Shown here: positions 3,267 to 59,591 of the stretch, one piece after another | How positions within the stretch are numbered: the stretch's first letter is position 1 | How the letters are laid out: every line of letters starts with the position of its first letter | Origin: Kiritimatiellia bacterium | GTDB lineage: Bacteria > Verrucomicrobiota > Kiritimatiellia > CAIVKH01 | Direction of reading: 5' to 3' | Length of the DNA: 64,000 bases | Assembly (NCBI GenBank): GCA_023953695.1 | Contig: JAMLJG010000015.1 | Span: 2,756-66,755 of the forward strand | The notes under the pieces: model-generated | What the model was told of the DNA's origin: nothing | What the model saw: only the letters and a program-made list of their open reading frames with translations | The model's database searches: none | Program-made: the position numbers and the translations under genes

Positions 3267-3902
3267 TCAATGCGCGATTCGATCCCACGACAGCAAGTCG
3301 TCGCTCGTTTCCGATTTGCGGTCCGGTCCGAGCGACCAAATCAGCGCGCCAGCGCCCAAAACGCGACCATAAATGCTATTCTCGATCGTGACTGCCCCAT
3401 CGTAGTTGCTATCGAGCGCGATCTGATAAGGCGATCCCCACGGATCCAGAAATTCATCGCTGTCATTCAGCCCCGAGAACCCCTTCTGATAGCGCTCTAT
3501 TTCAATGAAGATCATGTGCTGCGGATTCAACCGGGACTCCCGATCCAGCGCATTGGCGTCCGACCGCAAAATTCGCATCAGCACGGCATTAGGTCTGCGG
3601 GCGCCATAGCGGATATCCGCCGCGCCGGGCGACGACTCCGAAGGCCATGTTCCGTATTCACGCTGATATCGCGAGATCGCCGCTTGCATGGCGCGGATAT
3701 CGCTCCGCGCCATAGCGAGCCGATTGTGCCGACGCCATGCCTCCCATGCAGGGAAAAATATTGCCAACAGCAGCGTCAACACGCCAATCAAAACACCCCA
3801 CTCTGGAAGCGAAATCGCAAACGGCGACGCATTGCGCAAACGCGGCAACTCAGGTTTCTGCGCACTCTCGCCGGCTTGTGGAGGCGCCACAGAGCCACCC
3901 AT
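3267..3902 (-). CDS. GspG/PulG-like pseudopilin (type II secretion / type IV pilin-like) with atypical leader
   Basis: One N-terminal hydrophobic helix (WGVLIGVLTLLLAIFFPAW) is followed by the GspG-type periplasmic domain (AMQAAISRYQREYGTWP ... DPWGSPYQIAL). The leader lacks the canonical G|FTLIE; the nearest match is FA|ISLPEW with Glu at +5. The start is 3 nt after the gspF/pilC stop. Confidence 0.55.
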   Translation of the reverse strand: MGGSVAPPQAGESAQKPELPRLRNASPFAISLPEWGVLIGVLTLLLAIFFPAWEAWRRHNRLAMARSDIRAMQAAISRYQREYGTWPSESSPGAADIRYGARRPNAVLMRILRSDANALDRESRLNPQHMIFIEIERYQKGFSGLNDSDEFLDPWGSPYQIALDSNYDGAVTIENSIYGRVLGAGALIWSLGPDRKSETSDDLLSWDRIAH

Positions 3903-3905
3903 CCT

Positions 3906-5210
3906 TTAGCTCAACTTGCCGATAATGGAGATGAGCGGAAGGAATAGTGCGATGACGATTGTACCTACGACCAGTGCCAAGAAGACGATTAACAACGGCT
4001 CGATAACCGATGTCAGCCCAGCGACCGCGTTATCCACTTCATCGTCATACGTGTCCGCAATTTTCATCAGCATCTCGGGCAATTCGCCGGTTTCTTCGCC
4101 GACTTGCACCATGCTGATCACCATCGGCGGAAATACCTTTGTCGCCTCAATCGGCGGCGCCATATTTTCGCCCTCTTTCACCGCATCGTGCACGCTGGAG
4201 ACCGCTCGCGCCAACACTTCATTTCCCGCTGTGTCGCGCACAATATTGAGGGCCTGCAGAACCGGCACACCGGACGACATCAGCGTACCCAGTGTACGGG
4301 TAAAGCGACCGACCGCCGTCTTCTTTGCGAGCGGGCCGAACACGGGCGCGTTGAGCTTGAAGCGATCAATCCACAATGCGCCAGCGCGCGTTTTGGCCGC
4401 CACTTTTAGAACAATAATAACGACAACGACGATCAGCGCCACCAGCAGGATTCCCGGCACCTTCACAAACCCGAGATCCACCATGCCCGCGACCGACGAA
4501 CTGATTCCCATGACGAATTGCGTCAACCCCGGCAAAGCGGCGCCTTCGAGCAATTCGGAAAATATCTCTTTGAATTTCGGAATGATGAAGACCATCAAGA
4601 AAATCAAAATACCGACCGCCATCACCATGACGACAATCGGATACACCATCGCGCTGGTGACCTTGTTCTTGATCTTCTGCGCTTTCTCCATAAATTCCGC
4701 GAGACGGATCAAGACTTTGTCCAAAATGCCGCCGACTTCACCCGCCTTGGCCATATTGACATACAGCTTGTTGAAAATGCGCGGGTGCTGGGCGAGCGCC
4801 TCGGCAAACGTGCTCCCCGTCTGAATGGAATCCGCCATTTCGCGGAGCGCTTTACGAAGCAAGGGGTTCCGCTCCTGCTTCTCCAGCACCTCCAGACTGC
4901 GTACAAGCGGGAGACCGGCATCAACAAGGGTCGCGAGTTGCCGCGTGAAAACCATCAATTCTTTGGGTTTCACGCTTTGCAGAAAGGACGGCAACTTGAG
5001 CTCAATATTCTTGCTCAACGCCCCGCCCTTTTTCGCCGAGCCACGCCCGCCTGATGGTCGTCGAGCCTTGGCTCCGCCTTCCGTCACGCTGGTGGGAAAA
5101 AGCCCTTTCTCACGGATGCGCGCCACGGCGGCATTCTGCGACTCCGCCTCAACTTCTCCTTGGCTTTCGCGCCCGCGCGCATCCATCGCGACATATTGAT
5201 ACTTAGCCAT
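3906..5210 (-). CDS. type II secretion / type IV pilus inner-membrane platform protein (GspF/PilC family)
   Basis: Two T2SSF repeats, each with three predicted TM helices, and the conserved FTRQLATLVDAGLPLVRSL-type motif. Length and architecture are typical. Confidence 0.9.
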   Translation of the reverse strand: MAKYQYVAMDARGRESQGEVEAESQNAAVARIREKGLFPTSVTEGGAKARRPSGGRGSAKKGGALSKNIELKLPSFLQSVKPKELMVFTRQLATLVDAGLPLVRSLEVLEKQERNPLLRKALREMADSIQTGSTFAEALAQHPRIFNKLYVNMAKAGEVGGILDKVLIRLAEFMEKAQKIKNKVTSAMVYPIVVMVMAVGILIFLMVFIIPKFKEIFSELLEGAALPGLTQFVMGISSSVAGMVDLGFVKVPGILLVALIVVVVIIVLKVAAKTRAGALWIDRFKLNAPVFGPLAKKTAVGRFTRTLGTLMSSGVPVLQALNIVRDTAGNEVLARAVSSVHDAVKEGENMAPPIEATKVFPPMVISMVQVGEETGELPEMLMKIADTYDDEVDNAVAGLTSVIEPLLIVFLALVVGTIVIALFLPLISIIGKLS

Positions 5211-5308
5211 TCTTCAATTCCAACTCTCTGGTCGTCACTCTAGCTGAACTCTCGACTCTTTTGCAAGAATGCAAACCTCGTGCCGCGAGCTTTCGCTCCG
5301 CGAACAGC

Positions 5309-7021
5309 TCACGTGTACTTCAGAACTTCTTCCACCGTGGTGAATCCATCCAAAATGCAGCGAATGCCATCTTGCCGCAGGGTGCGCATTCCAAGCTCCA
5401 TCGCTTTGTCGCGAATGACAATCGTCGGCTTACGCTCGTTGATCAAATCGCGGATCGGGTCGCTAACGCGCAAGTATTCATAAATGCCGCGGCGACCTTT
5501 GTAGCCCGTCTCATTGCAACGCAGGCACCCGCTGCCGTGGTAGAACGGCCGATCCTGAACCTGCTCCTGCGAGAGGCCGAGAAGCTCCAAAACATCTTTT
5601 TCGGGCTGATAGGGCTGTTTGCACTCCTGGCAAATCGTTCTCACAAGTCGCTGGGCCAGCACGCCTTCTAGCGTGGAGGAGATGAGGAACGGCTCCACCC
5701 CCATGTCAATGAGTCGGGTGACCGCGCCCGCTGCGTCGTTGGTGTGGAGGGTGGAGAACACCAAGTGACCTGTCAGCGACGCCTGAACGGCGATTTCCGC
5801 CGTCTCTTTGTCGCGAATTTCACCGATCATGATGATATCCGGGTCTTGGCGCAGAAACGCACGCAACACGCGCGCAAAGGTCAGTCCGATAGCTTCGTGG
5901 ACGGGAATCTGGATAATCCCCTCAATGTCATACTCAACCGGCTCTTCCGCCGTGAGCAACTTGGAATCAATGGTATTCAGCCGGCGCAGAGCCGAATAGA
6001 GCGTGGTGGTCTTGCCGGAACCCGTGGGTCCCGTGACAACCACAATGCCATTGGGTTTATCAATATCGAAGCAGAAGGAGTTGAATACATCCTCGGGCAT
6101 CCCGAGGTTCTGAAGATCCAACTGAATCGAGCTGCGGTCCAACACGCGCAACACCACACTTTCGCCAAACTGCGTCGGCAGCGTCGAAACGCGGAAGTCA
6201 ATCTGCTTCCCGCCCACCGGCATCTGAATGCGGCCGTCCTGCGGCAGTCGTCGCTCGGCGATGTTCAGACCCGAAATAACCTTGATTCGAGAGATGACCG
6301 GCAGCGCCAAATGCTTTGGCGGCGGCGCCATTTCATACAGCGCACCATCCACGCGATAGCGAATCTTGAACTCATTCTCGAACGGCTCGAAATGGATATC
6401 GGATGCGCGATCTTTGACGGCCTGAAAGAGGACCAAGTTCACAAAGCGAATCACCGGCGCCTGGTTGGCCATTTCCTCGATTTCGGCCGTCTGATCCGCG
6501 CCTCCGGGGCGAATGGTGGCCTCGCCGACGTGCTCAAGTTCGCTCTCGAGCTCGGAAAGCATGTCGTTTACAGAGTCACTCGTATCGCCATACTGCTGAC
6601 TGAGCACCGCACGAATGTGCTCTTCCGAAGCAACGACAAAGGACACATCGCGCGTCAACACGAAGTTGAGCTCATCCACAAGCTGCGGACTCAATAGGTC
6701 GTAGGTCGCCAACACCACAGAGTGAGCATCCGCTTCAACCGGCACCACGTTATACATGCGCGCCACGCTGCCCGGGATGGACTTGAGGACGGATGGAGAC
6801 AGATCAGAGTGCAGCAGATCCACCACCGTGGACCCGAGATGCGTCGCAATCGCCTGCAACAGATCGGCCTCGCTGATAATATCCATCGCAATCAGCGTGT
6901 CGCGCACAGGTTTCCCTGTTCGCTCGCGCTCGTCCACAACTTCCTCCGCCTGTTGCTGGGTGATGAGCCCATCCTCAACAAGTTGGAGAAGCAAGGGATC
7001 GTTGAAATCTGATTCCGTCAT
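5309..7021 (-). CDS. GspE/PilB-family secretion ATPase (paralog 2)
   Basis: N-terminal GspE_N/MshEN-like domain, Walker [14 protein letters not shown], Asp and His boxes, and a C-terminal tetracysteine (CQEC...CLRC). Confidence 0.9.
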
Positions 7022-7032
7022 GACGATTCTGC

Positions 7033-8121
7033 CTAGCGACGGCCCCTCGGTTGAATTTTTTGCACCGTTGTATCCACGTCTTGCGCGCTGGTGATAACCT
7101 CTTCGTAGCCAATAATTCCGTGCTCGAATAAATCCACCAAATGGTCGTCGAGCGTCATCATTCCGAATTTGGCGCCCGTTTGGATATCGGAGGTGATGCG
7201 GAAGGTCTTGTTGTCGCGAATCAGCGAACGGATCGCGGGCGTCGCGACCATGATTTCAAATGCGGCCACGCGACCGGGGCGATCGTTTCGCACCAGAAGC
7301 AACTGAGAAATAACGGCTTCCAAACTCGATGCAAGCTGCGTGCGCACCTGGTTCTGCTGCTCCATCGGGAACGCGTCCACAATGCGATCCACGGTGCGCG
7401 CCGCGCCCGTGGTGTGCAATGTGGCAAAAACAAGGTGTCCCGTTTCGGCCGCGGTGATAGCCGCCTGGATGGTCTCCAAGTCGCGCATTTCGCCGACGAG
7501 GATCACATCCGGATCCTGTCGCAAGCCGCGTTTGAGCGCCTCTCCAAACCCCGGCACATCCACCCCCACCTCACGCTGCGTGATTACACTCTTCTTGTGA
7601 GGATGATAGTATTCGATCGGGTCTTCCACCGTGATGATGTGCACATCGCGAGTCTCGTTAATCACATTAATCATGCTCGCGAGCGTCGTCGTTTTCCCCG
7701 AACCCGTGGGCCCGGTGACGAGTATCAGCCCGCGCGGCTTGTACAACAATTCCTTGAGGCCTGGCGGCAACCCAATCTCTTCCAAGGACAAAAGGCGCGA
7801 TGGGATCAATCGCAGGACAATCCCGATCATCCCCTTTTGCCGAAACACACTCACACGGAAACGACCGCGATCGTGGTGTCCAAATCCAAAGTCCGTGCCT
7901 CCGTTTTCAGCCAGCCGCTTCTGATGCTCCGGCGGCGTGAACGATTTCATCAACCGCTCGGTATCCTCCGCCTTAAGCGGATCCGTATCAATCGGCTGTA
8001 GGCGCCCGTGCAGACGCAAGACAGGCGGAAGCCCAACGCCAATGTGCAAGTCTGAGGCCCCCTCCTCAATCACGAGATCGAGCAAGTCGCTCATTTGCAA
8101 CTCTGCTGCGCGCAAGCTCAT
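7033..8121 (-). CDS. pilT: PilT-family twitching-motility / retraction ATPase
   Basis: About 360 aa with no N-terminal GspE_N domain. Walker [14 protein letters not shown] and PilT-type signatures are present ([22 protein letters not shown]). Its start codon overlaps the stop of the upstream pilB-like gene at 8121. Confidence 0.85.
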
Positions 8122-9830
8122 CAGTTCGAATCCCCCATCGTGGTGCGAACCACTTCCTCAAGGGTCGTCTGCCCCGCAATCACCTTGCGAATTCCATCCT
8201 CGCGCAGGGTGCGCATCCCCAACTCGCGCGCCCGCGCTCGAAGATGCGACGCCGACACACGTTCGTAGATCATGTGGCGCACTTCATCGTTGATCAGGAA
8301 AATCTCGAAAATGCCTATGCGCCCGCGATACCCCGTTTGTTTGCACTCCGAACACCCGCGCCCGCGGAACAACTGCACCGCCTCCAACTTGCCCGCCAGA
8401 CCGCCGAATGTTCGCAGCTCGGCATCGGTCGGTTTGACGGATTCTTTGCAGCGCTCGCATATTTTCCGAACCAATCGCTGCGCCATAATCGCGCGCGTGG
8501 AAGAGGCGACCAGGAAGGGTTTGACACCAATATCAATCAAACGGGTCACAGCGCTTGGAGCGTCGTTCGTATGCAGCGTGCTGAAAACCAAGTGGCCCGT
8601 TAGTGACGCATTAACGGCGATCTCCGCCGTTTCCAAGTCGCGGATTTCACCGATCATGATGATGTTCGGCGCTTGCCGCAAAATCGAGCGAAGGGCCGCG
8701 CCGAAGGTCAACCCGATGTCCGAGCGGACATGCACCTGGTTGATTCCGGTCATTTGATACTCAACCGGATCTTCCACCGTGATAATCTTGCGATCCGGCT
8801 TGTTGATATGGTTCAAGCACGCATACAGGGTCGTCGTCTTCCCTGAGCCCGTCGGCCCGGTGACGAGAATGATGCCGTCTGACAACCCTATCAAGCGCTC
8901 GAAGGTCTGTTGATCGTCCGAGAAGAAGCCCAATTTCGGAAGGCCCAGCGAGAGGCTCTCCTTGTCCAGAATACGCATGACGATCGTCTCGCCGTGATTG
9001 CACGGAACCGACGACACACGCAGGTCCAAATCGCGCCCCATCACATTGATCTGAATGCGCCCGTCCTGAGGCAAACGCTTTTCCGCGATACTCATGTTTG
9101 CCATGATTTTCACGCGGCTGATGATTGCAGATTGAAGCCGTTTCGGCGGGCTCTCGACCTCATGCAAGACGCCGTCAATGCGATAGCGCACGCGGAACTT
9201 GCGCTCCAAGGGCTCCAAATGAATGTCTGATGCCCGGCTGCGAAACGCCTCGAGAATGATCAAGCTCACCAACTTGATGATCGGCGCGTCGGCGTCGGTC
9301 ACCTCATCTTCACCCTCGAGCTTCGGCGTCCCCTCGCCCGGTGCCTGTATGGATCCCTCCGTCAGCTCATCGAGCATGGAGGCGACCGTGCTCCCTGTAG
9401 CAGGATACATACGGCTCAGCGCGGCTTCGATTTCCTCCGGAATCGCCACCACACCGGCTACATCGCAGCGCAACACGTAGCGCAGACTGTCCAGCGTCTC
9501 CACATCCAGCGGATCGCTCAAAGCGACGGTGATCGTGGACTCTGTGCGATAGACGGGGATGATATGGTAGCGGCGAGCGACTTCGCCAGGAACCAAGTCC
9601 ACCACTTCTTGGTCAAATTCCAAGCCGGATAGACTGACAAACTCCATCCCGAATTGATTGGCCAGTGCCTTCAGTATGTCGGATTTCGTAGCGAATTTGC
9701 GCTCTGCAAGGACATCTATAACAGTCGTGTCAGCGTCCTGAGCGATCTGTAGCGCCTCTGCACCCTGCTGGTGAGTGATCAGGCCAACACTTTCCAGGAT
9801 TTCAATTACGTATTCGTCGTTTGCAGTCAC
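8121..9830 (-). CDS. GspE/PilB-family secretion ATPase (paralog 1)
   Basis: GspE_N domain, Walker [14 protein letters not shown] and a C-terminal zinc-finger-like CERC...CSEC. Same architecture as paralog 2. Confidence 0.9.
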
Positions 9831-24950: not shown

Positions 24951-25075
24951 AACCCGGCAACGTGCTACTCTCCCGTAGCCTACACTACAGTACCATCGCC
25001 GCTGAGGGTCTTAACGGCCGTGTTCGGAATGGGAACGGGTGTTTCCCCCTCGCTATGGTCACCGGGAAATCAGGA
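24951..25075 (-). rRNA. rrf: 5S ribosomal RNA
   Basis: The reverse complement reads a canonical 5S sequence (…CCCGTTCCCATTCCGAACACGG…GGGAGAGTAGCACGTTGCCGGG). Confidence 0.85.
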
Positions 25076-25142
25076 CTCTGCCAAGGGCAGAGAAAAAACA
25101 TTGCATAGGATGGTTCACATACATTCACAGAAAAAGAGAAAA

Positions 25143-28105
<2,963 letters not shown>

Positions 28106-28292
28106 AAAATTATTGGTCGCCATCCGCACCCTTGCGGGTACGAACGGTTACGATCTTCTTCGGTGAAGATTGTATGTTTCCCATCCTATGCAATTGTCAA
28201 AGATCAGCCCTCAGTACAGCGCTCATTTGCGCCTTCCATCGGGAAATCGTTTCGAAGTGATTGGCTCGCCTTTCGCTCGCGCTTCACGCCAT

Positions 28293-28368
28293 GGTGGGCG
28301 TGCCTGGATTCGAACCAGGGACCTCGTCCTTATCAGGGACGCGCTCTAACCAACTGAGCTACACGCCC
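28293..28368 (-). tRNA. tRNA-Ile (anticodon GAT)
   Basis: The reverse complement GGGCGTGTAGCTCAGTTGGTTAGAGCGCGTCCCTGATAAGGACGAGGTCCCTGGTTCGAATCCAGGCACGCCCACCA folds as a cloverleaf with anticodon loop CTGATAA. Confidence 0.9.
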
Positions 28369-28380
28369 GCCGCTAATTGG

Positions 28381-28453
28381 TGGAGGCAACCGGGTTCGAA
28401 CCGGTGACCTTCTGCTTGCAAAGCAGATGCTCTACCAGCTGAGCTATACCCCC
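28381..28453 (-). tRNA. tRNA-Ala (anticodon TGC)
   Basis: The reverse complement GGGGGTATAGCTCAGCTGGTAGAGCATCTGCTTTGCAAGCAGAAGGTCACCGGTTCGAACCCGGTTGCCTCCACCA has anticodon loop TTTGCAA and the G3:U70 Ala identity pair. Confidence 0.9.
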
Positions 28454-28679
28454 AGGACCGTGGTCTCGGGGACGCTGCCCTGGCTCCCGGCTCATCAATC
28501 ACTTCGCTGGAATACTTGCTATGTTAGCTTCGATGTAGAAATGGTGAGGCTTGTGATCGTTATACGCTGGTCTCACGTTGCCGCGAGACCGACATCCTGC
28601 CTATGGCAGGAGAATATCCTATCTTCTTGAATTCACACTTTACTTGCCCGAGGGCAAGCGCCTTGTGATTCCGAAGATG

Positions 28680-30248
<1,569 letters not shown>

Positions 30249-37765: not shown

Positions 37766-38578
37766 TTATTCGGGCACCACTTCGACATTTCGGAGCGACT
37801 TGACCAAATCCGTCGTCAGCGCCTCCATCTCCAGAATGATCCTCGTGGCCTTATTTCTAAAGTAGTAGAAGAAGCCGACCGCAGGCACGGCCGCTATCAG
37901 GCCCGCAGCAGTGGTGTAGAGCGCCTGCGCGATGTTGATGGCCAGCAACTGCTGCTGCGCCGCTCCCGCCTGCATCGTCGCCAAGTTGGCAAATGCAGCG
38001 ATCATTCCTTGCACCGTACCCAACAGCCCCAACATCGGCGCGAGGTTGGCAACGACGTTCAGATACGTCACGCGCTGGAGAACTTTCTCGCTCTCGAGAT
38101 CGGCAGCCACACCGATGGCTTCCTGAACCGCGTCAAAACCCTCCGAAACATTGCTAAAACCGGCGGAAAGGATGTTCGCCAACGGACCCGGATCCATCTC
38201 ACACTCTTTGAGCGCCTTCATCACATCCCCCTGCTCAATCGCCTCGCGGGCTCGGTTGACCAATTGCGCGGGCGCAATCTTCTTTTCGCGCACGGTGACG
38301 AACGAGTCCACTATCAGCGAGAAGCCTGCGACCGAACAAGCGCCCAGGGCAAGCCACAACACGACGCCCAGCCAGCCGCTACTCATCACAACATTGCCAA
38401 AACTCATCGGCGAAGATTTATTCGCATCGGCCGCTTCCGCCGCCTTCGCCTCCTCCGTCAACTCCATGGCCTGTCCATAAACGGTACCGGCGCTCACCCA
38501 CAATGCGCCCAACAGGGCTATGCCCACAATCCAACGCTTCGCCTTCAGCATATTCGTGCTCCTCATTAACTGATCCAT
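37766..38578 (-). CDS. MotA/TolQ/ExbB-family proton channel (long form with N-terminal signal peptide and periplasmic extension)
   Basis: Three C-terminal TM helices with the conserved ANLAPMLGLLGTVQGMI motif. The N-terminal cleavable-signal-like segment is as seen in Bacteroidetes-type ExbB. Confidence 0.8.
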   Translation of the reverse strand: MDQLMRSTNMLKAKRWIVGIALLGALWVSAGTVYGQAMELTEEAKAAEAADANKSSPMSFGNVVMSSGWLGVVLWLALGACSVAGFSLIVDSFVTVREKKIAPAQLVNRAREAIEQGDVMKALKECEMDPGPLANILSAGFSNVSEGFDAVQEAIGVAADLESEKVLQRVTYLNVVANLAPMLGLLGTVQGMIAAFANLATMQAGAAQQQLLAINIAQALYTTAAGLIAAVPAVGFFYYFRNKATRIILEMEALTTDLVKSLRNVEVVPE

Positions 38579-38583
38579 ACATC

Positions 38584-39402
38584 CTACAGTTTCGCCTGTG
38601 CGCGCTGCGCAAACGGCGTTCCACCAAATTCTTCCACCACGCGGCGATAGAGATCGCGGCTCCGCGGATCGCGCATGCGCTCCAGTCCATCCGCCGCCTT
38701 GAACAGCGCCTCGGGCATCAGTGTCTTCTCCGATTCGAAAAGCATCGCCGTGCGCAAATAGTCCATCACAGCGCCTTCCACCTGACCCTGCGCCAGCTTG
38801 AGATCCCCGCGCATGATCTGCGCGCGCGCCGCATCGGCGCGCGAACCCTTTTCGATCATCTCGCCCAACTGCGGGGCCAGCTTGTCAAACTGCTTCGCAC
38901 CGAGCAACGCATTCAAATAGCCCCAGAGCGCCGCGCTGTCGCGCTTTTGATCGGGCGCCGATTGGAAGAGCCGCTCGAAACTCGCAACAGCCCCCGCTGC
39001 ATCGCCCTTGCTCATCTGAATCTGCGCCGAGAGAGCGCGCGCCTGATTGTCCCAGTTCAAGAAGCGATAATTCTGGATCACCTGCTCCAAGAGCGTCAGC
39101 GCCTCGTCATAGTTCCGCTGCTGTGCCAACCGCAGCGCGCGATCAAATTCGGCGGGGCGCGCCGCTTCAGCGCGCTGATAGCGGCCTTTTTCATAGGTGA
39201 CCTGCCCCTGCGTCGTAGTCAGGATGATGGTTCCGTCGGAACGCGCGCGGATGTCGGTGCCATCCACACGCTGCCCATTCGGCAAAATAACGTAGGGATT
39301 CTGCGCCACTGCGGGTCCCGCAATAACGGAGCCCAACAGCGCCAACGCAATAATCCTGCCCAGTCGCAACTTCATAATCGTCATGGTCGCTTCCTTCATC
39401 AC
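38584..39402 (-). CDS. periplasmic TPR-repeat protein
   Basis: Signal peptide and three to four TPR-like repeats. It lies immediately upstream of exbB, and its stop overlaps the start of the large TPR protein. Confidence 0.6.
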   Translation of the reverse strand: MMKEATMTIMKLRLGRIIALALLGSVIAGPAVAQNPYVILPNGQRVDGTDIRARSDGTIILTTTQGQVTYEKGRYQRAEAARPAEFDRALRLAQQRNYDEALTLLEQVIQNYRFLNWDNQARALSAQIQMSKGDAAGAVASFERLFQSAPDQKRDSAALWGYLNALLGAKQFDKLAPQLGEMIEKGSRADAARAQIMRGDLKLAQGQVEGAVMDYLRTAMLFESEKTLMPEALFKAADGLERMRDPRSRDLYRRVVEEFGGTPFAQRAQAKL

Positions 39403-42230
39403 GGCCCTGTGCTCGGCGTCGCCCCACCATTGGTACTGGCGCGAAGGCTGGCCTCAGAACGCAAACGCCTGACCTCGGCTACCTTGTCACTGGTCGGGAA
39501 CAGCTTCAAGTAAAGTTCACAGGAATCCACGAGATCCTTGAAATGCCCCAGTTCCATGGCCAGCGGCATACCGGCCAGCAGCGCTTCCTGAATGAAGGGG
39601 CGTTGCTCAACTTTGTTGGGATCCGAGAGCAGGGCGACTCGCTGGAAAGACGCCAACGCGCCCGATTTATCGTTGGCCTTGAGCTGCACCTCGGCCAACT
39701 TCATGCTCGCTTGGTTGAGTTGAACAGGGTCTTTGGAGAAGCGGAATATCTCGTTCAGCGATTCGCTCGCCGCACGGAAGTTGCCGGTTTCCGCATACGC
39801 TTCGCACAGAAGAAAGCGCGCCTCGAAAAACAGCGCCGTACGGGGATAGTCCCTGAGCAGCGCATCGAGCGCCTTGATCGCGCCCTCGTTGTTCTTCTGC
39901 TCGAAATAGGCGCGGCCCACGCCATACAACGCGCGCTCCAACAGCGTGCGAGACTCCGGCAAATCTTTTGTGGCCTGGATTTGAGGGTTGTTGGCCACGA
40001 AGCGGAACGCCTCCAACGCCTGGTCGAACAGCTTCGCATCAATCATCAATTGGCCAATCCGGGCGAACTCGGAAGGGGAATATTTGTCTTTGTTGGCCGA
40101 CATCTTTTCAAACGCCATGCGCGCCTGATCATATTGACCAATCTCCATCGCGCTGCTCGCCAACGAAAACAGAGCGTTTCGCCCCTCTTCCGAGTTCGGA
40201 TATTTCGCCGCCAACTCGTCGAAGGTCTTCGTGGCCTCGTCAAACTGGTTCAACCCTAGCTGAACCTGGCCCTGCCCCATCATGGCGCGCGGGGCAAACT
40301 CCGATTGCGGGAACAATTGCAAGAATTGCTGATACCCGCGCATCCCGCGCTCCCGATAGGAGGCCACCTGCTCAACCGTTCCGGTCATGCGCGAGTAGGC
40401 ATTCGCGCGCTGAAAAATGGCGCGCTCCAGCACGCTCATATTCTTCGCGCGATCTTCCTCCGTCGCGGCGTAGGGATTGCCCTTGGGCGCAAGCCAACCG
40501 ATCAACTTTTCGAACTCTGTCGCCGCCGCGCTCCAGTTCGTCTGCCGCACATAACTGTCGGCCAGACTGAACTGGGCATTCGCTCGGTCCGGACTGGGCG
40601 GAACGTCGCTGACCAATCTGGCATACGCCTCTCGCGCTTTGTCGTATTGCTTGAGGTCGTAGTAGCTGCGCGCAATCAGGCGAAGCGCCTTGGGATAATT
40701 CTGATCCTTGGGATAATCGTCCACGATGCGCTGGAAGTAGTGGTCCGACCCCTCAATATCGCCCGCTTTGCGGCGCACACTGCCCAAGTAGTAGAGGATC
40801 GTGCCCGCGCGCTCGTGCTTCGGAAAGTGGGAGAGATAGAGATCGTAGAGCTCAAGCGCAAAGGACTCGTTCTGTTTGCCACTGACCACGCTCGCATTGG
40901 AGAGCAGCGCGGCCGCCGCATCCGCGTTTCCAGCAAATCGCTCCGCGATATATTCAGCCACCGCGCGCGCATACAGCAAGTTATCGGTCTCCACGTAACT
41001 CTGCAGCAGAAAGCCCAACGAGCGGATGGAAGCGGGCGTTTCGGGATAGGCATTGAGCGCGAGGAGATATTGCCGAATCGCCTCGCCAAACTGCTTCTGC
41101 CGAAACAGATTGTCGGCCAGCCGGAATTGCGTCGCAGAGGCTTTCTCCGCCTGCTTTGCCCCAAGATCAATATTGACCGTCTTGCCCATCCCTTCCAACT
41201 GCGCCTTGATTTCGTTGGCGCGCACACCAGCGGGTGGGCCCCAATCGCTTTCTCCATACTTCACAAACACGTTGTAGAACTCTTTGAGGGCGCTGCCCAG
41301 CAGGCCAATGGCCTCATCGCGACGATTCGGATCCTGCAGCGCGGCGGAAGCATCTTCTTGATAGATTTTGCCGAGCAAGAAGCGCGATCCCGCGAGCGGA
41401 CTCATCGCGGTCGAAACTTTCTCCTGCTTAATGAGGTCGTCAATCTCCCCGAGAATATCCGCGTATTGCTGGGTCAGCATCTTCTTCGCCAAATCGCGAT
41501 TCCCGCGCGCCAATTCAATGTTCGCCAGCGTCACGATGGACTGGCCAAACCAAAGGTCAGCCCCACCCCATTGAATGTCTTTGCAAATCTTCTCCGCGCG
41601 CTCCAAATACTGATTCCGCTCATCGCCCGAAAGCTGCAGCGCGCGATCCACCAGCAACTGCGCCTGCTCAGCCAGAAGCGAACGAACCTGCTCCTTGTCC
41701 GCAGTCGCCGAAATCACGCGCCCCAGCGCTTCCGCCGCGCCGCCCAAGTCGCCCGAGAGGCGAAGCATCTGCGCAAAACGATAGGCCGCATCGCTATAGA
41801 ACTTCAGCAAATCCGGGTCCGTCGGCGGCTGCTGGAACCGAGCAAAGAACTCCTGATAAATCTGGCGCGCTCGATCCATGTCGCCACTGCGATAGTAGCC
41901 GTTCGCCAAGGCGAGGCGGATCGAGTCGGCATTGGGATCGCCCGCCGCCATCTCCTTAATGATCGCCTCGGCATCGGCATATTTGCGCGCGGCGATCAGG
42001 CTCTTGGCAGAAATGATTTTTGCGCGGCCAGCTTGATCCGGATACTTCCGAACAATGCTCTCCATCAACTTATTGGCAAAATCGGGGAAACCGCCTTCCG
42101 CCAATTTGTTCGCAAACTCAAACTCCTGATTCAGCGATTGCGCGCGAACTCCCAACGCCGCGCTTCCGAACAACAAACACATTCCTACCGCTGCAATCCA
42201 GGTCGGACGAGATCTCAGTTTGTAAAACAT
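39399..42230 (-). CDS. large secreted multi-TPR-repeat protein (943 aa)
   Basis: Signal peptide, then more than 15 TPR/Sel1-like helical repeats along its length (recurring W/L-G-x-Y, A-x-x-F motifs). Confidence 0.6.
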   Translation of the reverse strand: MFYKLRSRPTWIAAVGMCLLFGSAALGVRAQSLNQEFEFANKLAEGGFPDFANKLMESIVRKYPDQAGRAKIISAKSLIAARKYADAEAIIKEMAAGDPNADSIRLALANGYYRSGDMDRARQIYQEFFARFQQPPTDPDLLKFYSDAAYRFAQMLRLSGDLGGAAEALGRVISATADKEQVRSLLAEQAQLLVDRALQLSGDERNQYLERAEKICKDIQWGGADLWFGQSIVTLANIELARGNRDLAKKMLTQQYADILGEIDDLIKQEKVSTAMSPLAGSRFLLGKIYQEDASAALQDPNRRDEAIGLLGSALKEFYNVFVKYGESDWGPPAGVRANEIKAQLEGMGKTVNIDLGAKQAEKASATQFRLADNLFRQKQFGEAIRQYLLALNAYPETPASIRSLGFLLQSYVETDNLLYARAVAEYIAERFAGNADAAAALLSNASVVSGKQNESFALELYDLYLSHFPKHERAGTILYYLGSVRRKAGDIEGSDHYFQRIVDDYPKDQNYPKALRLIARSYYDLKQYDKAREAYARLVSDVPPSPDRANAQFSLADSYVRQTNWSAAATEFEKLIGWLAPKGNPYAATEEDRAKNMSVLERAIFQRANAYSRMTGTVEQVASYRERGMRGYQQFLQLFPQSEFAPRAMMGQGQVQLGLNQFDEATKTFDELAAKYPNSEEGRNALFSLASSAMEIGQYDQARMAFEKMSANKDKYSPSEFARIGQLMIDAKLFDQALEAFRFVANNPQIQATKDLPESRTLLERALYGVGRAYFEQKNNEGAIKALDALLRDYPRTALFFEARFLLCEAYAETGNFRAASESLNEIFRFSKDPVQLNQASMKLAEVQLKANDKSGALASFQRVALLSDPNKVEQRPFIQEALLAGMPLAMELGHFKDLVDSCELYLKLFPTSDKVAEVRRLRSEASLRASTNGGATPSTGP

Positions 42231-48995: not shown

Positions 48996-49934
48996 ATGTC
49001 TTCAAAACGCTATGCAGTCCTCGGAACCGGCGCTCTGGGTGGCTATTACGGCGCGCGCCTGCATCTCGCCGGCCATGAAGTTCACTTTCTCCTGCGCAGC
49101 GACTACGCCCACGTTCGCTCCCACGGCCTGCGCGTGGACACGGCTGACGGAACGCACCAGCTGACCCGCGTTCACGCGCATCAAACCGTGGACACCATGC
49201 CGCCCTGCGACGTCGTCATGGTTGCTCTCAAGACGACGCAGAACCACCTCCTCCCGACGCTGCTGCCCAAGCCACTGGCCCCAAACGGCGTGGCGCTGAT
49301 GATGCAAAATGGGCTCGGCATCGAAGAAGAAGCCGCGGCCCTCGTCGGCGCAGAGCGCGTGATGGGGGGACTCTGCTTCATCTGCGCGAACAAAGTCGGC
49401 CCAGGTCACATTCAACACGTGGACTACGGCGAAATTATGCTCGGTGATTACCGGCCCGATGGAAAACCCGCGCCCATCTCACCCCGCGTGGAATCCATCG
49501 CCGCCGACTTGCGCGCCGCGCAAATCCCCATTTCTCTCGCTGACGATCTCCTGCTCGCGCGCTGGAAAAAACTCGTCTGGAACGTGCCCTACAACGCCCT
49601 CTCCGTCATCCTCCGCGCCACCACCGACCGCATCGCGAAAGACCCCGACGCCTGTGCGCTGGCCGAAGCGCTCATGCGCGAAGTCGTCGCCGCGGCCGCC
49701 GCATACGACAAAGTGATCGGCGAAGATTTCATCGCGCGGATGTTGCTCCACACCGAAAAAATGCGTCCCTATAAAACGAGCATGATGCTCGACTTTGAAG
49801 CCGGTCGCCCACTGGAAGTGGATGCGATCTACGCCCGTCCGCTCGCCGCCGCCCGCGTGCGCGGCGTCGAGTGCCCCCGCATGGAAACCATAACGCAGCA
49901 ACTCCGATTTCTATCCCCACAAGGTGCCTCATGA
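48996..49934 (+). CDS. panE: 2-dehydropantoate 2-reductase (ketopantoate reductase)
   Basis: N-terminal Rossmann VLGTGALGGYYGARL, an ApbA/PanE C-terminal domain and the conserved Lys/Glu region. The start is taken at MSSKRY. Confidence 0.8.
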   Translation: MSSKRYAVLGTGALGGYYGARLHLAGHEVHFLLRSDYAHVRSHGLRVDTADGTHQLTRVHAHQTVDTMPPCDVVMVALKTTQNHLLPTLLPKPLAPNGVALMMQNGLGIEEEAAALVGAERVMGGLCFICANKVGPGHIQHVDYGEIMLGDYRPDGKPAPISPRVESIAADLRAAQIPISLADDLLLARWKKLVWNVPYNALSVILRATTDRIAKDPDACALAEALMREVVAAAAAYDKVIGEDFIARMLLHTEKMRPYKTSMMLDFEAGRPLEVDAIYARPLAAARVRGVECPRMETITQQLRFLSPQGAS

Positions 49935-50815
49935 GATACCTCCTCGCCGCTCTGCTTCTCGCGCTCGGCGCAACGCCCTTGATCGCGCAGCCCTCAGCAA
50001 CGCCACCCCTCACCGCTGAGCCACCGCCGATGCGCTTCGAGGTCTATCCCATCGGCGCCATGGATATGGAATCCACACTCGAATCCGTCCGCGCATTTGT
50101 CGGCGACGAAGGCAACGTCACGCCAGATCCCGTCCACCAGCGCCTGCTCGTCGCAACGACTCCAGCGCGACATGCGCAAATCGCCGACCTCATGAGCAAG
50201 CTCGCCGTACCCGCCCGCAACGTGCGCATTGAAGTCGCGTTCGACTCCGCAGGAAATCAATCGCAGTCCGAGTTGTCCGTTTCCGGCTCCGGCGACATCA
50301 GCCTCGGCTCCGGTGGACTCGGCGGCACCATCAAACTGCAACCGAAGATCATCAATCAGACGACCACGACCACAGGCCGGGAGGTGCAAACGCTCCTCGT
50401 CAGCAGCGGGCGCGAAGCGAGTCTGCGCATCGGCGAGAGTGTTCCCTACCTGCAATGGTTCACAGAATACGGCTTTCATTACGGCTGGAATGTGCCTCAG
50501 CTCGCATGGCAGGAGGTCGGCTCCTTTCTCGTGGTGCAACCCACCGTCATCGGCAACGGCCCCCTCGTCCGAATCAAGCTCACGCCGGAATTGCGCGGCC
50601 TCGTGAATGGCGCGCCGGAACACCTCCGCTACTCAGCCGTCTCGACCGAAGTCGTGGTGAGTGATGGACAAAGCGTCTCCCTCGGTGGACTCGATCAGAA
50701 CCGCGATTTCTATGACCGTTTCCTCGTCGGCATGGCGCGAAACGGCGGAACCGAATCGCTCAACATTCGGCTGACCCCACACATCCAAACCCTCGCGCCT
50801 CCTCCCGCACGCTAG
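49931..50815 (+). CDS. compact secretin-family outer-membrane protein (Secretin_N + secretin core, ~294 aa)
   Basis: Signal peptide. Secretin_N-like domain (RFEVYPIGAMDMESTLESVRAFV...HQRLLVATTPARHAQIADLMSKL) and a C-terminal secretin core (VVVSDGQSVSLGGL...RFLVG...LNIRLTPHI). The ATG overlaps the panE stop in an ATGA arrangement. Confidence 0.5.
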   Translation: MRYLLAALLLALGATPLIAQPSATPPLTAEPPPMRFEVYPIGAMDMESTLESVRAFVGDEGNVTPDPVHQRLLVATTPARHAQIADLMSKLAVPARNVRIEVAFDSAGNQSQSELSVSGSGDISLGSGGLGGTIKLQPKIINQTTTTTGREVQTLLVSSGREASLRIGESVPYLQWFTEYGFHYGWNVPQLAWQEVGSFLVVQPTVIGNGPLVRIKLTPELRGLVNGAPEHLRYSAVSTEVVVSDGQSVSLGGLDQNRDFYDRFLVGMARNGGTESLNIRLTPHIQTLAPPPAR

Positions 50816-53262: not shown

Positions 53263-54279
53263 CTATTCCTCTTCGTGCACCACTTCGGACAGGTGGAACC
53301 CCGCCTCGGCCATCATCGCCATGTCGTCCTCATAGCCCTGCCCACCGGTCGTCAAGTAGCCCTCGCTGAACATCGAGTTGGCCGGATAGAGCGCCAGCGG
53401 CTGCATGTGCTTGAGCACCACTTCGCGACCGCCGGCAATTCGAATGTCGCGAGTCGGATTCACGAACCGGAACATGCACAAACACTTCAACCCCTCCGCC
53501 GGAGACAGGCGTTCCACGTCCGCAAGCGGCGTGCCGGGGCGCGGGTCAAAAAGATTCACCGGAATGGACTCCACCTCCATCTCGCGCAGCATGAACGCCA
53601 AATCCACACGGTCGTCCAGCGACTCGCCCATCCCCATAATCCCGCCGCAACACGCTTCCATGCCCGCCGCCTTGGCGATCTTCACCGTGCGCACGCGATC
53701 CTCAAAGCTGTGCGTCTGCACCACTTTCGAGAAATAGTTCTTCGAGGTCTCGAGGTTGTGATTGAACCGATCCACCCCCGCCTCGACCAGTCGCGCCGCG
53801 TCCGCTTCGGTCAAGATTCCGAGCGAAGCGCAAATATCAATGTCCATCTCCGCCTTGATGCGCCGCGTCGCCTCGCAAATAATCTCCAGCTCCGCATTCG
53901 ATGGCCCCCGCGTGGCCGTCACCATGCAATACTTCGCCGCGCCCATTTCGTGCGCCTTGCGCGCGCCCTCCAGCAACTCCTCCGGCGTCTGCATCCGATA
54001 GCGCTCAACGCCGCTCTGCGCGCCCATCGCTTGGCTGCAGAACCGACAGTTCTCGCGACAAAGCCCGCTCTTGGCATTGCGCAACACGTGCAGCCGAACA
54101 TCTCGCCCATAAAAACGCTTGCGGACGCGAAACGCCGCATGCAGCAGCGCCAACAACTCATCGTCATCCGCGCGCAAAACCGACATCGCATCCTCGCGCG
54201 TCAGAGCATTCCCTGCCAGCGCCTCATCTGCCAAATGATCCCAACGAGCCATAGCTCCTCCTGAAAAACGCTTCTTCAT
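53263..54279 (-). CDS. bioB: biotin synthase (radical SAM)
   Basis: CxxxCxxC radical-SAM motif (CRENCRFCSQ) plus the BATS domain with auxiliary-cluster cysteines. The start may be the internal MARWD. Confidence 0.9.
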   Translation of the reverse strand: MKKRFSGGAMARWDHLADEALAGNALTREDAMSVLRADDDELLALLHAAFRVRKRFYGRDVRLHVLRNAKSGLCRENCRFCSQAMGAQSGVERYRMQTPEELLEGARKAHEMGAAKYCMVTATRGPSNAELEIICEATRRIKAEMDIDICASLGILTEADAARLVEAGVDRFNHNLETSKNYFSKVVQTHSFEDRVRTVKIAKAAGMEACCGGIMGMGESLDDRVDLAFMLREMEVESIPVNLFDPRPGTPLADVERLSPAEGLKCLCMFRFVNPTRDIRIAGGREVVLKHMQPLALYPANSMFSEGYLTTGGQGYEDDMAMMAEAGFHLSEVVHEEE

Positions 54280-54380
54280 ACACCAACTCGCGAGCTTGGA
54301 ACAGGAAAACCATACACTACCCCAGATGTGTTTGCATTTTGCAGATTCTCCGCCACGATGTTCAGCCTACTGCAACCGCA

Positions 54381-55540
54381 TGAACGAGTGGATCGAACAA
54401 CAGCTCAGCGAAGTGGCCGCGCGCGGTGAATCGCGCCAGCTCACCGCATGGCCCACCCTCGGCCCCTACCTCCAGCGCGCCGACCAACGCATCCTCAACC
54501 TCGCGGGCAACGACTATCTCGGCCTCACCGCGCACCCCGCCGTGCGCGAAGCCGCCGCCCGCGCCGCGCGCGACATCGGAACCGGCGCCACCGCCTCGCG
54601 CCTCCTCGCCGGAACCGCCACTCTCCACGAACAACTCGAAGCAGAACTCGCCGACTGGAAAGGCCATCCCAGCGCCCTCCTCTTCAGCAGCGGCTACCTC
54701 GCCGCGCTCGGCATCCTTCCCCTCCTCGCCGGACGCGATGACCTGATCGTCGCCGACCGCCTTTGCCATGCGTCCCTCCTCGACGCCGCGCGACTCAGCG
54801 GCGCAACCCTCGTTCGCTTCCATCACAACGACATCGCCGACGCCCACAAGCGCCTCGCAAAACGCCCGCACCACCCCCGCTGCCTCATCGTCACCGAATC
54901 GCTCTTCAGTATGGACGGCGACACCGCGCCACTCCCCGAACTCCTCGCGCTCGCCCAATCGCACAATGCCACACTCCTCGTGGATGAAGCCCACGCCCTC
55001 GGCGTCGCCGGCCCGCGCGGCGCGGGCCTCACCGCCGACCAACCGGAAGCGGAAGAAAACCTCGTCACCCTCGGCACCCTCGGCAAGAGCCTGGCCGCCG
55101 CGGGCGGCTTCATCACCGGCCCCGCCAAACTCCGCACGCTGATGATCAACCGCGCGCGCACCTTCATTTTCGACACCGCCCTGCCACCGCCCACCCTCGC
55201 TGCCGCGCGCGCCGCACTAAACGAGATACGCGCGCACCCCGAATGGCCCCGCGCCCTCGCCGAAAAGGCCGCCCGCCTCCGCGCTCGGCTCAGCAGCGCC
55301 GCGCTCGACACCACCCCCTCCCAATCGCACATCATCCCCGTGCGCATCGGAGACAACCACCGCGCCACAGCCATCGCCTCACGCCTCAGCGAACAGAACA
55401 CCCTCGTCGCAGCCATTCGCCCACCCACCGTTCCGCCCGGCACCGCGCGTCTCCGCCTCTCTCTCAGCCTCGCCCACAGCGACACCGACCTCGACGCCGC
55501 CGCTGCCGCCATCCAACGCGCCGCGCAGAATATCCCATGA
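54381..55540 (+). CDS. bioF: 8-amino-7-oxononanoate synthase
   Basis: PLP-dependent AONS/serine-palmitoyltransferase-family fold, with the catalytic lysine context SLGKSLAAAGGFI. The start is taken at MNEWIEQ. The stop overlaps the bioH start (ATGA). Confidence 0.85.
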
Positions 55541-56160
55541 AAGCGCGACTCTTCCCCGGCTGGGCCTTCCCCGAAACCGCACTCCAACCCATCGCCGAAG
55601 CCCTCCACTGCGACATCCGCACAGACACCGGCGGCGACCTCTGGATCGCCTGGTCACTCGGCGGACTCCACGCGCTCACTCAATCGCGCGCCACCACTCC
55701 CCGCGCACTCATCCTCATCTCCTCCACCGCGCGCTTCTGCGCAGACAGCGACCACTGGCCCGGCCTACCCACCGCCAACCTCCGCGCACTCCAGCGCCAA
55801 CTCGCCCGCGCCCCCGAAGACGCCCTTCGCGGCTTCCACAAACTCTGCACCGCAACCGCATCCGCCACCACCCTCGAAACGCGCCTGCGCGACAGCCTCA
55901 CCCTCCCCCTCGCCGATGGCCTCCGCGACCTCGCCGAACTCGACCTCCGCGACCGCCTTGAAACCATCCGCCAACCCACCCTCCTCCTCCACGGCTCCAA
56001 AGACCGCGTAATCCCCATCGCCGCCGCCCACGCCCTCGCCCAGCGCCTCCCACACGCCCAACTGCGCGAACACCCCGAAGCCGAACACGACCTCCCCATC
56101 GCCCACGCCGGCTGGGTCATCGAACAAATACGCGACTTCCTCGGCGCAGATTGGGGATAA
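55537..56160 (+). CDS. bioH: alpha/beta-hydrolase, BioH-like pimeloyl-ACP methyl ester esterase
   Basis: Nucleophile elbow AWSLGG with a C-terminal Asp/His region (HGSKDRVIP...EHDLP). Located between bioF and bioC. Confidence 0.65.
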   Translation: MKARLFPGWAFPETALQPIAEALHCDIRTDTGGDLWIAWSLGGLHALTQSRATTPRALILISSTARFCADSDHWPGLPTANLRALQRQLARAPEDALRGFHKLCTATASATTLETRLRDSLTLPLADGLRDLAELDLRDRLETIRQPTLLLHGSKDRVIPIAAAHALAQRLPHAQLREHPEAEHDLPIAHAGWVIEQIRDFLGADWG

Positions 56161-56348
56161 GCCTCCAAACTCCTTGCTGCACACCCAACAGCCAGCTATC
56201 TTCGCCCATGCTGTGAAAACGCTGGGAAAATCAGCAATTTGTGGAACGAAGCGGCCCTCTGGACACCCCGCAAAGGCGCCGCCCGAATCGCTCTCTTCAC
56301 CGCGACAACAACCGCAACAACACAACCCGAGATTCAGCAGGTGCAGAC

Positions 56349-56987
56349 ATGGATGAATCAAAGAATACTGCAATCATCATGCGAGACGCAGAACATGGCG
56401 ACACCGAAGCCAAATGTATTCTCGGCATGATGTATTTAGATGGACATGGCGTCCCTCAAAGCGACGCGAAGGCGCTCGAGTGGTTCGCCCAGGCCGCAGA
56501 AGAAGGCAATGCCGACGCGCAATTCTATCTCGGCGTCATGTACTACGAAGGCCGGTGCGTACCCCAAAACTACGCAAAAGCCGTCGAATGGTATTCACGA
56601 GCCATTGAACAAAACCACGCCGAATCGCAATTCAACATCGGCTGGCTATACGCCAAAGGGCATGGCCTTCCGCAAGACGACGTAAAAGCTGCCGAATGGA
56701 TCGCAAAGGCCGCGGAACAAGGAGACGCAGACGCGCAATCCGACCTCGGCGTCATGTACTACGAAGGCCGCGGAGTGCCCCAAGACGATACAAAAGCATT
56801 TGAATGGCTCTCAAAGGCCGCCGCGCAGGGCATTGCCACATCGCAAGCCAACCTCGGTGAAATGTATGAAAAAGGCCGAGGTGTGCCACAAGACTACGCA
56901 AAAGCTGCCGAATACTACGCCATGGCCGCCGAACAGGGCCATGACGATGCGCAAAGAAATCTCGACGCGCTGTCCGAGAGAAATTGA
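56349..56987 (+). CDS. Sel1-repeat (SLR/TPR-like) protein
   Basis: Five tandem 36-aa Sel1 repeats (A.AxxWYxKAAEQGxAxAQxNLGxMYxxGxGVPQD). Local GC is visibly lower than the flanking bio genes. Confidence 0.75.
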   Translation: MDESKNTAIIMRDAEHGDTEAKCILGMMYLDGHGVPQSDAKALEWFAQAAEEGNADAQFYLGVMYYEGRCVPQNYAKAVEWYSRAIEQNHAESQFNIGWLYAKGHGLPQDDVKAAEWIAKAAEQGDADAQSDLGVMYYEGRGVPQDDTKAFEWLSKAAAQGIATSQANLGEMYEKGRGVPQDYAKAAEYYAMAAEQGHDDAQRNLDALSERN

Positions 56988-57094
56988 AAGTGAGCCCTAT
57001 GCGCAGCCGCGAGTTGAGCAAAAGCTCAACGAGGCGCGTGGTCAATTCGCAAATCGGACTGCACGACGCGGGGCGCGTTTGATAGATTCGCCCC

Positions 57095-58571: not shown

Positions 58572-58672
58572 TTGGAAACCGGTCGCGCGCGGACTTCCAA
58601 CGATTGGAAAATTTGCGTGTGAAAGTTCCAAGGGTTGGAAGTATGGTGCGAGGAAATTTCCAAGCGTTGGAA
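58563..58672. repeat. array of four TTCCAA-N3-TTGGAA palindromes at 31-32 bp periodicity upstream of the bioA 5' fragment
   Basis: Copies at 58563-58577 (tga), 58595-58609 (cga), 58626-58640 (ggg) and 58658-58672 (gcg). The last two lie inside the duplicated block shared with the functional bioA upstream region. Confidence 0.7.
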
Positions 58673-58689
58673 ATATGGGGTGATTTTCG

Positions 58690-58869
58690 ATGAGTGTTTC
58701 TGAGGTTCAGCGTTGGGATCGCGCGCATGTGTGGCGCCCGTACACCAAGGCTTCCACGCTTGAGGCGGGGCCGGCGCCGGTCATTGTGCGGGGGCCACCC
58801 GGGGTCTGCCACCCGGGGTCAACCCTTGAAAGGCCGTTGAAAAACTCGCTGTTGCCGATGTCTGTTTAG
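58690..58869 (+). pseudogene. orphan 5' fragment of bioA (first 35 codons) truncated by an insertion
   Basis: MSVSEVQRWDRAHVWRPYTKASTLEAGPAPVIVRG is near-identical to the N-terminus of the full bioA at 61686. The reading frame then continues into unrelated sequence and stops. Confidence 0.7.
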
Positions 58870-59411: not shown

Positions 59412-59591
59412 GGGAACGTCTCCTTATGTCGGCTCGAATGCCGACCTCACTCCAACGACTCAAGGCCCAGACGTGTTCATCGTTTATCCGAGTTTTTCAA
59501 TAGCCATTATTCCACTGACCCCTATTCCACAGACGTTCGCCCCACGGCATGACTGCTTTACGGCTCTCTAGCGTCATGATATGATAGCGCC

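Follow-up and report, generated by a model that had tools for sequence, protein, structure and literature searches.

A Verrucomicrobiota gene block with two diverged PilB-type ATPases flanking PilT, a probable motor module of a type IVa-like pilus machine

The five-gene locus

The subject of this work is a cluster of five genes for a pilus- or secretion-type machine, located in 64 kb of DNA (contig JAMLJG010000015.1; the whole of this stretch is called the window below) from a metagenome-assembled genome (MAG) of the Kiritimatiellia; identical proteins are found on contigs of Kiritimatiellae/Kiritimatiellia MAGs. Re-reading of the open reading frames (ORFs) reproduced the minus-strand gene order and positions of an initial annotation made from the sequence: from 9830 to 3267 the genes run PilB1, PilT, PilB2, PilC, PsP. 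All components come from known families and already have names in public pipelines. The oddity of the operon is that two anciently diverged assembly ATPases flank a retraction ATPase, and that an odd GspG-like protein comes after the platform gene. The features of the locus are:

8121-9830, minus strand: PilB1, a PilB/GspE-type assembly ATPase of 569 aa, with an MshEN-type N1 domain, N2D, C-terminal domain (CTD) and tetracysteine
7033-8121, minus strand: PilT, a retraction ATPase of 362 aa (TIGR01420, Pfam T2SSE)
5309-7021, minus strand: PilB2, a second PilB/GspE-type assembly ATPase, 570 aa, with the architecture of PilB1
5211-5308, minus strand: PilB2-PilC spacer of 98 nt, with a sigma-54-like GGCACGAGGTTTGC at 5271-5284
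3906-5210, minus strand: PilC/GspF-type inner-membrane platform protein of 434 aa (Pfam T2SSF, twice)
3267-3902, minus strand: PsP, a divergent GspG-like pilin-fold protein of 211 aa, aligned to GspG by hhalign, with a degenerate class III signal peptide

The start of PilT lies on the stop of PilB1, so that the two genes overlap by 1 nt; PilT and PilB2 are separated by 11 nt, PilB2 and PilC by 98 nt, and PilC and PsP by 3 nt. The description of the locus as tightly packed thus suits the first and last of these junctions, but not the 11-nt and 98-nt ones. The flanking genes are all co-directional with the cluster (serA-gatC-gatA-gatB upstream, an Rrf2 regulator and the suf operon downstream).

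The 98-nt spacer may contain a candidate internal promoter for pilC-psp, as judged from its sequence. The window contains two copies of the pattern GGCAC-N5-TTGC where 0.78 would be expected, a statistically weak excess, and the sigma-54-like site is not kept as such in the orthologous spacers (48-102 nt long). Several of these (L005, L006, L059 and L061 were compared) have in common TAAAACGATT-N4-6-GTTGCC, where the window has GGCACGAGGTTTGC instead.

The assembly ATPases, PilT and PilC

Both PilB copies have the MshEN-type N-domain and the tetracysteine that had been assigned to them: Pfam T2SSE and MshEN score 464.5 and 70.4 bits in PilB1 and 460.1 and 57.3 bits in PilB2, and each contains CxxC...CxxC. 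The closest solved structures for both are the full-length type IVa pilus (T4aP) PilB proteins of Geobacter and Myxococcus (495-514 bits; for PilB1, 495-512 bits over the full length); the match to Vibrio GspE is lower for both (428-446 bits). With the NCBIfam models, PilB1 scores 643.9 for GspE (TIGR02533, cutoff 630.25) and 640.6 for PilB (TIGR02538, cutoff 675.65), and PilB2 scores 640.6 and 622.1, respectively. Because these two models score nearly equally, the same orthologues (at least 120 clusters of PilB2 orthologues, at 70% or higher, in Kiritimatiellia MAGs) are named GspE by NCBI and PilB by JGI.

Given the shared domain architecture, the lengths of 569 and 570 aa and a distance of 1.1 kb, the second PilB might look like an ordinary PilB that was recently duplicated in tandem or is in decay, with no separate role. 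This explanation is extremely improbable. Identity between the two copies is 46% overall (N1, 31%; N2D, 50%; CTD, 54%), compared with 73-92% between orthologues across species, and both copies are present in every locus of the metagenome scan considered below, from Kiritimatiellia to Verrucomicrobiae. Walker A, Walker B, the Asp box, the His box, the RLPQDGR arginines and the CxxC...CxxC zinc site are intact in PilB1 and PilB2, and each has its own fixed clade signature (EEPVE, in the Asp box, for PilB2; RQAPN in place of RQDPD for PilB1). With all catalytic motifs intact, the idea that one copy is a pseudo-ATPase is likewise ruled out.

In neighbor-joining trees with bootstraps, built for the full length and for the core domain with few references and none from MshE or TadA, the PilB1 and PilB2 orthologues form two separate clades (bootstrap 100% without the distant locus L096, 74-75% with it) whose internal topologies run parallel. 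The duplication is therefore older than the split between Kiritimatiellia and Verrucomicrobiae. A sister relationship of the two clades gets only 30% support, and neither paralogue falls inside the gammaproteobacterial canonical GspE clade (100% bootstrap). The best explanation of these sequence features is that PilB1 and PilB2 are ancient paralogues of an assembly ATPase, both predicted to be catalytically competent. The initial annotation had raised the possibility of two specialized assembly motors and had named recent tandem duplication of a standard PilB as part of the finding that would speak against its reading; the 46% identity and the separate conserved clades rule out such an event, and the divergent N1 domains and parallel orthologue clades agree with two distinct, anciently diverged ATPases that are conserved together.

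Control of these motors by cyclic di-GMP (c-di-GMP) through the MshEN domain, for which a screen had been proposed, was rejected on motif grounds. The motif used was the tandem 24-residue RLGxx(L/V/I)(L/V/I)xxG(L/V/I)(L/V/I)xxxxLxxxLxxQ (PMC5013675), in strict and relaxed form. Neither form matches PilB1, PilB2 or nine orthologues; all positive controls (Geobacter, Myxococcus, Acetoanaerobium and the Manganitrophus ATPase a) match, and the c-di-GMP motif domain NF053729 scores 34.2 in PilB2, under its cutoff of 38. Orthology to TfpB was also ruled out (NF053534 gives 489.4 and 463.4, with its cutoff at 850).

The assignment of PilT is straightforward. The protein scores 453.2 with the NCBIfam model for the PilT/PilU family (TIGR01420 pilT_fam, cutoff 319.1) and 180.9 bits with Pfam T2SSE, lacks MshEN, contains an AIRSLIRD motif of the PilT AIRNLIRE type, and is named 'type IV pilus twitching motility protein PilT' in one source. 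PilC matches Pfam T2SSF in two stretches (219.5 bits; T2SSF_N is found in precomputed results) and stays under both relevant NCBIfam cutoffs (Myxococcus-type PilC, 400.1 against 700; GspF, 396.5 against 424). By these sequence matches its membership among the platform proteins holds at the superfamily level.

Conservation of the block and the pilin-like protein PsP

Conservation was followed in a scan of one genome per species and in a metagenome scan seeded with the PilB2 N-terminus. The species scan found the complete five-gene cluster in L004-L007 and L010, where identity to the window is 73-92% for the ATPases and 66-86% for PilC, but only 39-65% for PsP. The metagenome scan brought 37 further loci, and PilB1-PilT-PilB2-PilC is intact in every one that is long enough to show the block, which identifies these four genes as the conserved unit. 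This order is shared by 5 species genomes and about 30 metagenome loci that range from Kiritimatiellia to Verrucomicrobiae. ATPase identity to the window drops to 59-64% in the metagenome loci and to 49-50% for the three ATPases in L096, beside which no pilC was detectable. Upstream of the block gatAB is still often found in related loci, and gcvH comes after pilC in a neighboring clade.

PsP is a subclade-specific add-on outside this conserved core. Even with a family hidden Markov model (HMM) it was detected only in the subclade of the window (L001-L012 and L059-L061), and most lineages with the four-gene block do not have it. Where PsP does occur, in 15 loci, it comes immediately after pilC every time. 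The family is small, with 28 clusters at 90% identity in a word-indexed search and 45 representatives at E<=1e-30 in an exhaustive profile search of 1.84 billion proteins.

The initial annotation had called this protein a GspG-type pseudopilin. The homology stands, by profile-profile comparison only: hhalign aligns PsP with canonical GspG over its whole length (probability 98.4%, E 9.2e-15), with two insertions relative to GspG and with the DPWGxPY and C-terminal GxDxxxxxxDDxxxW (GPD...DD..W) regions kept. PsP does not reach the level of a GspG equivalog; it has no Pfam match, its NCBIfam GspG score is 23.6 bits against a cutoff of 88.85, and its signal peptide is degenerate. An AlphaFold2 model (pLDDT 85.7) has an N-terminal helix of 52 residues and then a beta domain, and the top PDB matches of this model in Foldseek are EpsG/GspG/PulG, at non-significant values (E>0.3).

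The cleavage region of the window PsP reads A|ISLPE rather than G|FTLIE, with A at -1, I at +1, E at +5 and P at +22. Of 39 family members, 35 have E5 and P22 in register; the residue at -1 is G or A in 19 and R, K, L or P in 20, and the FTLIE core has been lost, giving forms such as R-LSxPE; the more distant homologues all carry [GA]FTL[IV]E. Given this decay of the -1 residue and of FTLIE, processing is not a conserved property of the PsP family, though the window copy itself may still be processed by a prepilin peptidase. In L012, six canonical prepilin genes directly follow PsP, and for this reason PsP would seem to be an accessory protein rather than the major filament subunit.

Interpretation and comparison with known systems

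The most informative relatives are four Verrucomicrobiae contigs (L087, L088, L092 and L095), in which a convergent cluster begins about 1 kb after the pilC of the same two-PilB block. It encodes a 5'-3' exonuclease, a TPR-secretin (850-915 aa; 562 bits for the NCBIfam Amuc_1098 family), an Amuc_1099-like protein, an Amuc_1100-like/PilO-like protein and a PilM-like protein of 594 aa (pilM TIGR01175, 176.8 against a cutoff of 133; Amuc_1101 family, 579 bits); one protein is named 'Amuc_1100 family pilus-like protein' in its source. Scores for the Amuc_1098, 1099, 1100 and 1101 families are all under the equivalog cutoffs in these loci. A TPR plus secretin architecture is that of Akkermansia PilQ, Amuc_1098 (PMC4960237). 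The linkage suggests that the motors of the two-PilB block are likely to be those of the Akkermansia-type pilus-like apparatus. In searches of the literature on Kiritimatiella, Verrucomicrobia and Akkermansia with pilB/pilT/gspE, no paper was found that describes the motors of this apparatus, the linkage of the block to an Akkermansia-type cluster, a conserved PilB-PilT-PilB-PilC order across a phylum-level lineage, or a PilC-linked GspG subfamily with a decayed cleavage site.

In machines of this kind, hexameric PilB motors drive pilin insertion via PilC, and PilT drives retraction. The reading that best accounts for the locus, to which we give a probability of roughly 60%, is that the five genes form the motor and inner-membrane-platform module of a T4aP-like machine of a Verrucomicrobiota kind, whose remaining parts are encoded elsewhere; in this genome the alignment complex, secretin, prepilin peptidase and filament pilins would lie at other loci. 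The presence of PilM-type, Amuc_1100-like and TPR-secretin genes near the block in the four Verrucomicrobiae loci argues for the motor module of a multi-locus machine and not for a minimal stand-alone one, and T4aP systems usually have their genes scattered over several loci (PMC6668835). PilC would then be the platform on which the hexameric motors act and PilT the retraction ATPase. That PilB1 and PilB2 are conserved together, with catalytic sites intact and N1 domains divergent, would point to two specialized extension motors for one machine, sub-functionalized on the same platform; one might, for example, prime assembly and the other sustain it, or each might use different partners through its N1 domain. 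The PilB and TfpB proteins of Acinetobacter baylyi provide a precedent for two extension motors on one type IV pilus (PMC11656802). PsP would be a lineage-specific, GspG-derived pilin-fold protein, translationally linked to PilC, and most likely an accessory subunit, either of low abundance or retained in the membrane at the base, rather than a major pilin. This reading draws on gene content, paralogy, conservation, motifs and the PilM/secretin linkage in relatives, from which the division of labor between the motors and the role of PsP are extrapolated.

The missing parts were sought in the window by six-frame regular expressions, Pfam scans of nearly all long ORFs and tblastn. None of PilM/N/O/P, GspC/L/M or GspH-K was found in the 64 kb, which agrees with the earlier statement that no secretin or PilMNOP genes adjoin the module. 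The secretin-like gene that had been noted 40 kb away is real, but tiny:

49871-50815 (Met start 49931), plus strand: small secretin-family protein of 294-314 aa with a signal peptide (Pfam Secretin, 37.8 bits)

This mini-secretin covers the Pfam Secretin model in part only and has weak PilQ/GspD matches. It lies about 40 kb from the block, between panE and a methyltransferase/LPG-synthase gene, and is named 'hypothetical' in the sources.

Several observations weigh against a T4aP-like motor module. The NCBIfam scores of the two ATPases fall between the models, just over the cutoff for GspE and just under that for PilB, and the NCBI name is GspE. The backbone of the neighbor-joining trees is not resolved, and neither paralogue lies inside the proteobacterial PilB clade (96%). 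The Pfam scans of the window contain no prepilin peptidase (PilD; peptidase A24), there is no canonical G/A-FTLIE or other pilin-like N-terminus in any frame of the 64 kb, and no PilM/N/O/P/Q, PilD or canonical pilin was found within 10 kb of the block in Kiritimatiellia loci. The sole pilin-fold gene of the locus is GspG-like, not PilA-like. Finally, two uncultured Verrucomicrobia/Verrucomicrobiota MAGs (L008 and L011) have pilC-psp immediately after gatA-gatB, with no ATPases between; pilC-psp is thus separable from the motor genes.

A rival proposal, that of the initial annotation, is that the genes constitute a self-contained, minimal endopilus similar to the type II secretion system (T2SS), in which GspE-like ATPases, a GspF-like platform and a single GspG-like pseudopilin would make up a short periplasmic piston for the export of folded enzymes, perhaps through the mini-secretin. 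The scores of both ATPases are over the NCBIfam GspE cutoff, GspG homology extends across the whole length of PsP, the window contains a small secretin-family gene, and a long GspE whose MshEN-like N domain no longer binds c-di-GMP is known in the Xanthomonas T2SS (PMC5013675) and also in a Comamonas T2SS locus. The proposal is nevertheless quite improbable. A PilT sits at the center of the operon, GspF and GspG are under their cutoffs, GspC/D/L/M and the minor pseudopilins H-K were not found in the window, and neither ATPase belongs to the canonical GspE clade (100% support); PsP is absent from most lineages with the four-gene block, relatives tie the block to PilM-type rather than GspL-type genes, and the mini-secretin is 40 kb off among unrelated genes. 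In L005, L007 and L010, moreover, canonical prepilin genes are found at distances of up to 10 kb from the block, and in L012 right behind PsP. The suggestion of a minimal secretion or pseudopilus machine in the initial annotation is therefore not upheld, given these prepilins, the PilM, Amuc_1100-like and TPR-secretin genes of the four loci, the multi-locus habit of T4aP systems and the add-on nature of PsP.

The two motors might instead serve two filaments encoded by one operon, with PilB1 and PilT working a retractile surface pilus, and PilB2 building a separate endopilus or second pilus type, for which it would pair either with PilC and PsP or with another platform encoded elsewhere (for example of the L027/L038 type). 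Translational coupling of PilB1 and PilT by the 1-nt overlap, with PilB2 then followed by the 98-nt spacer and pilC-psp, would fit such a division. The N1 domains, which are thought to dock on the base of the machine (PMC11656802), are only 31% identical, and extension ATPases are usually machine-specific (PMC11656802). In addition, a PilC homologue (52% identity) with seven canonical pilin genes and no ATPase within 10 kb is present in Kiritimatiellae and Verrucomicrobia MAGs. We consider this arrangement unlikely, since the block has a single platform gene, no genome was found with both the block and an L027-type cluster (the homologue matches do not overlap), the L027-type PilC may be no more than another lineage's orthologue, and L008 and L011 keep pilC-psp without an adjoining PilB2. 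The clusters themselves (L027, L057 and L058 from a Kiritimatiellae MAG, L038 from a Verrucomicrobia MAG) are colinear, with the PilC homologue (52% to the window PilC), seven prepilin-like genes and a protein of 1138-1290 aa; this large protein has no Pfam match, and there is no ATPase within 10 kb upstream.

A bolder extension of the T4aP-like reading may be offered as a tentative, rather doubtful possibility. In Verrucomicrobiota a single platform would be served by obligately paired PilB1 and PilB2, acting in sequence or in mixed assemblies, together with PilT, and in the one Kiritimatiellia subclade with PsP this protein would remain uncleaved in many members and act as a membrane base or anchor, or as a filament terminator, instead of polymerizing as a pilin. 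Why some bacteria keep several PilB homologues was an open question in a 2024 review of PilB regulation (PMC11656802), and a lineage with two diverged PilBs, PilT and PilC in one operon is a natural system in which to address it. PsP represents a discrete GspG-like subfamily whose processing site has decayed, and it may point to a role for the pilin fold outside filaments. The GspE/PilB naming conflict is also of practical consequence, since metabolic reconstructions of these polysaccharide-degrading bacteria can be led astray by it when they infer 'type II secretion'.

Other features of the window may be recorded here. A complete rRNA operon (16S, two spacer tRNAs, 23S and 5S) occupies 24952-30247 on the minus strand and accounts for a 6-kb stretch without long ORFs and for a dip in G+C. 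GC skew changes sign along the window: it is negative between position 1 and about 56 kb, becomes positive beyond about 60 kb, and reaches its cumulative minimum near 56-60 kb; the switch at about 54000-60000 could be a replication origin, a terminus or a change of strand bias, and the genes near it include biotin-synthesis and methyltransferase genes, with no dnaA seen there. Positions 37766-42230 of the minus strand contain a MotA/ExbB-family gene and genes for TPR proteins of 272 and 943 aa, with an L,D-transpeptidase that has a peptidoglycan-binding domain further on, an envelope-associated cluster that appears to be unrelated to the pilus genes.

Among known systems, the T4aP PilB-PilT-PilC machinery of Myxococcus xanthus and Geobacter (PDB 3JC8, 5TSG and 5ZFR) includes the best solved relatives, which share the succession of MshEN-N1, N2D, CTD and tetracysteine, a PilT of the AIRNLIRE type and a PilC with two T2SSF repeats. 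The locus differs in the second PilB between pilT and pilC, in the absence from both copies of the c-di-GMP motif found in the Myxococcus and Geobacter PilB, and in the position of both PilBs outside the proteobacterial PilB clade and under the TIGR02538 cutoff. Set against the MacSyFinder model for T4aP (PMC6668835), in which pilT is mandatory (T2SS typically are without PilT), the window has PilT and, at the superfamily level, PilC, and does not have PilM/N/O/P, PilQ, a major pilin or PilD.

The GspE-GspF-GspG core of T2SS, including the long GspE of the Xps type, resembles the locus in that the cutoff of the GspE HMM is just passed, the platform is GspF-like and PsP is homologous to GspG. 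In contrast to a T2SS, PilT is present, GspF and GspG do not reach the equivalog level, and GspD, GspC/L/M and GspH-K were not found in the window; two insertions and a degenerate signal peptide set PsP apart, and the ATPases lie outside the canonical GspE clade.

Adjacent PilB/GspE-type ATPases are also found on a plasmid of Ca. Manganitrophus (L056, CP114559.1), where two prepilin genes are followed by ATPase a, ATPase b, GspF and PilT; this order, ATPase-ATPase-F-PilT, differs from that of the block, and one Manganitrophus copy keeps the c-di-GMP motif. In an Omnitrophota MAG (L022), a stand-alone MshEN-domain protein precedes two PilB-like genes among housekeeping genes. The grouping of the Manganitrophus and Omnitrophota ATPases with PilB1 or PilB2 is weak (bootstrap 46-59% in one tree, 14% in the other).

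A functional parallel is that of A. baylyi (PMC11656802), in which two distinct extension ATPases and PilT act on one machine, as is proposed for the present locus. Here, unlike in A. baylyi, both motors are encoded in one operon, where they flank pilT and are kept across a phylum-level lineage, and there is no TfpB orthologue. As to the Akkermansia Amuc_1098-1101 cluster, it is not within reach of the block in the window or in the closest Kiritimatiellia relatives, but homologues of all four of its families lie near the block in the four Verrucomicrobiae loci, where the build of the TPR-secretin matches that of PilQ.

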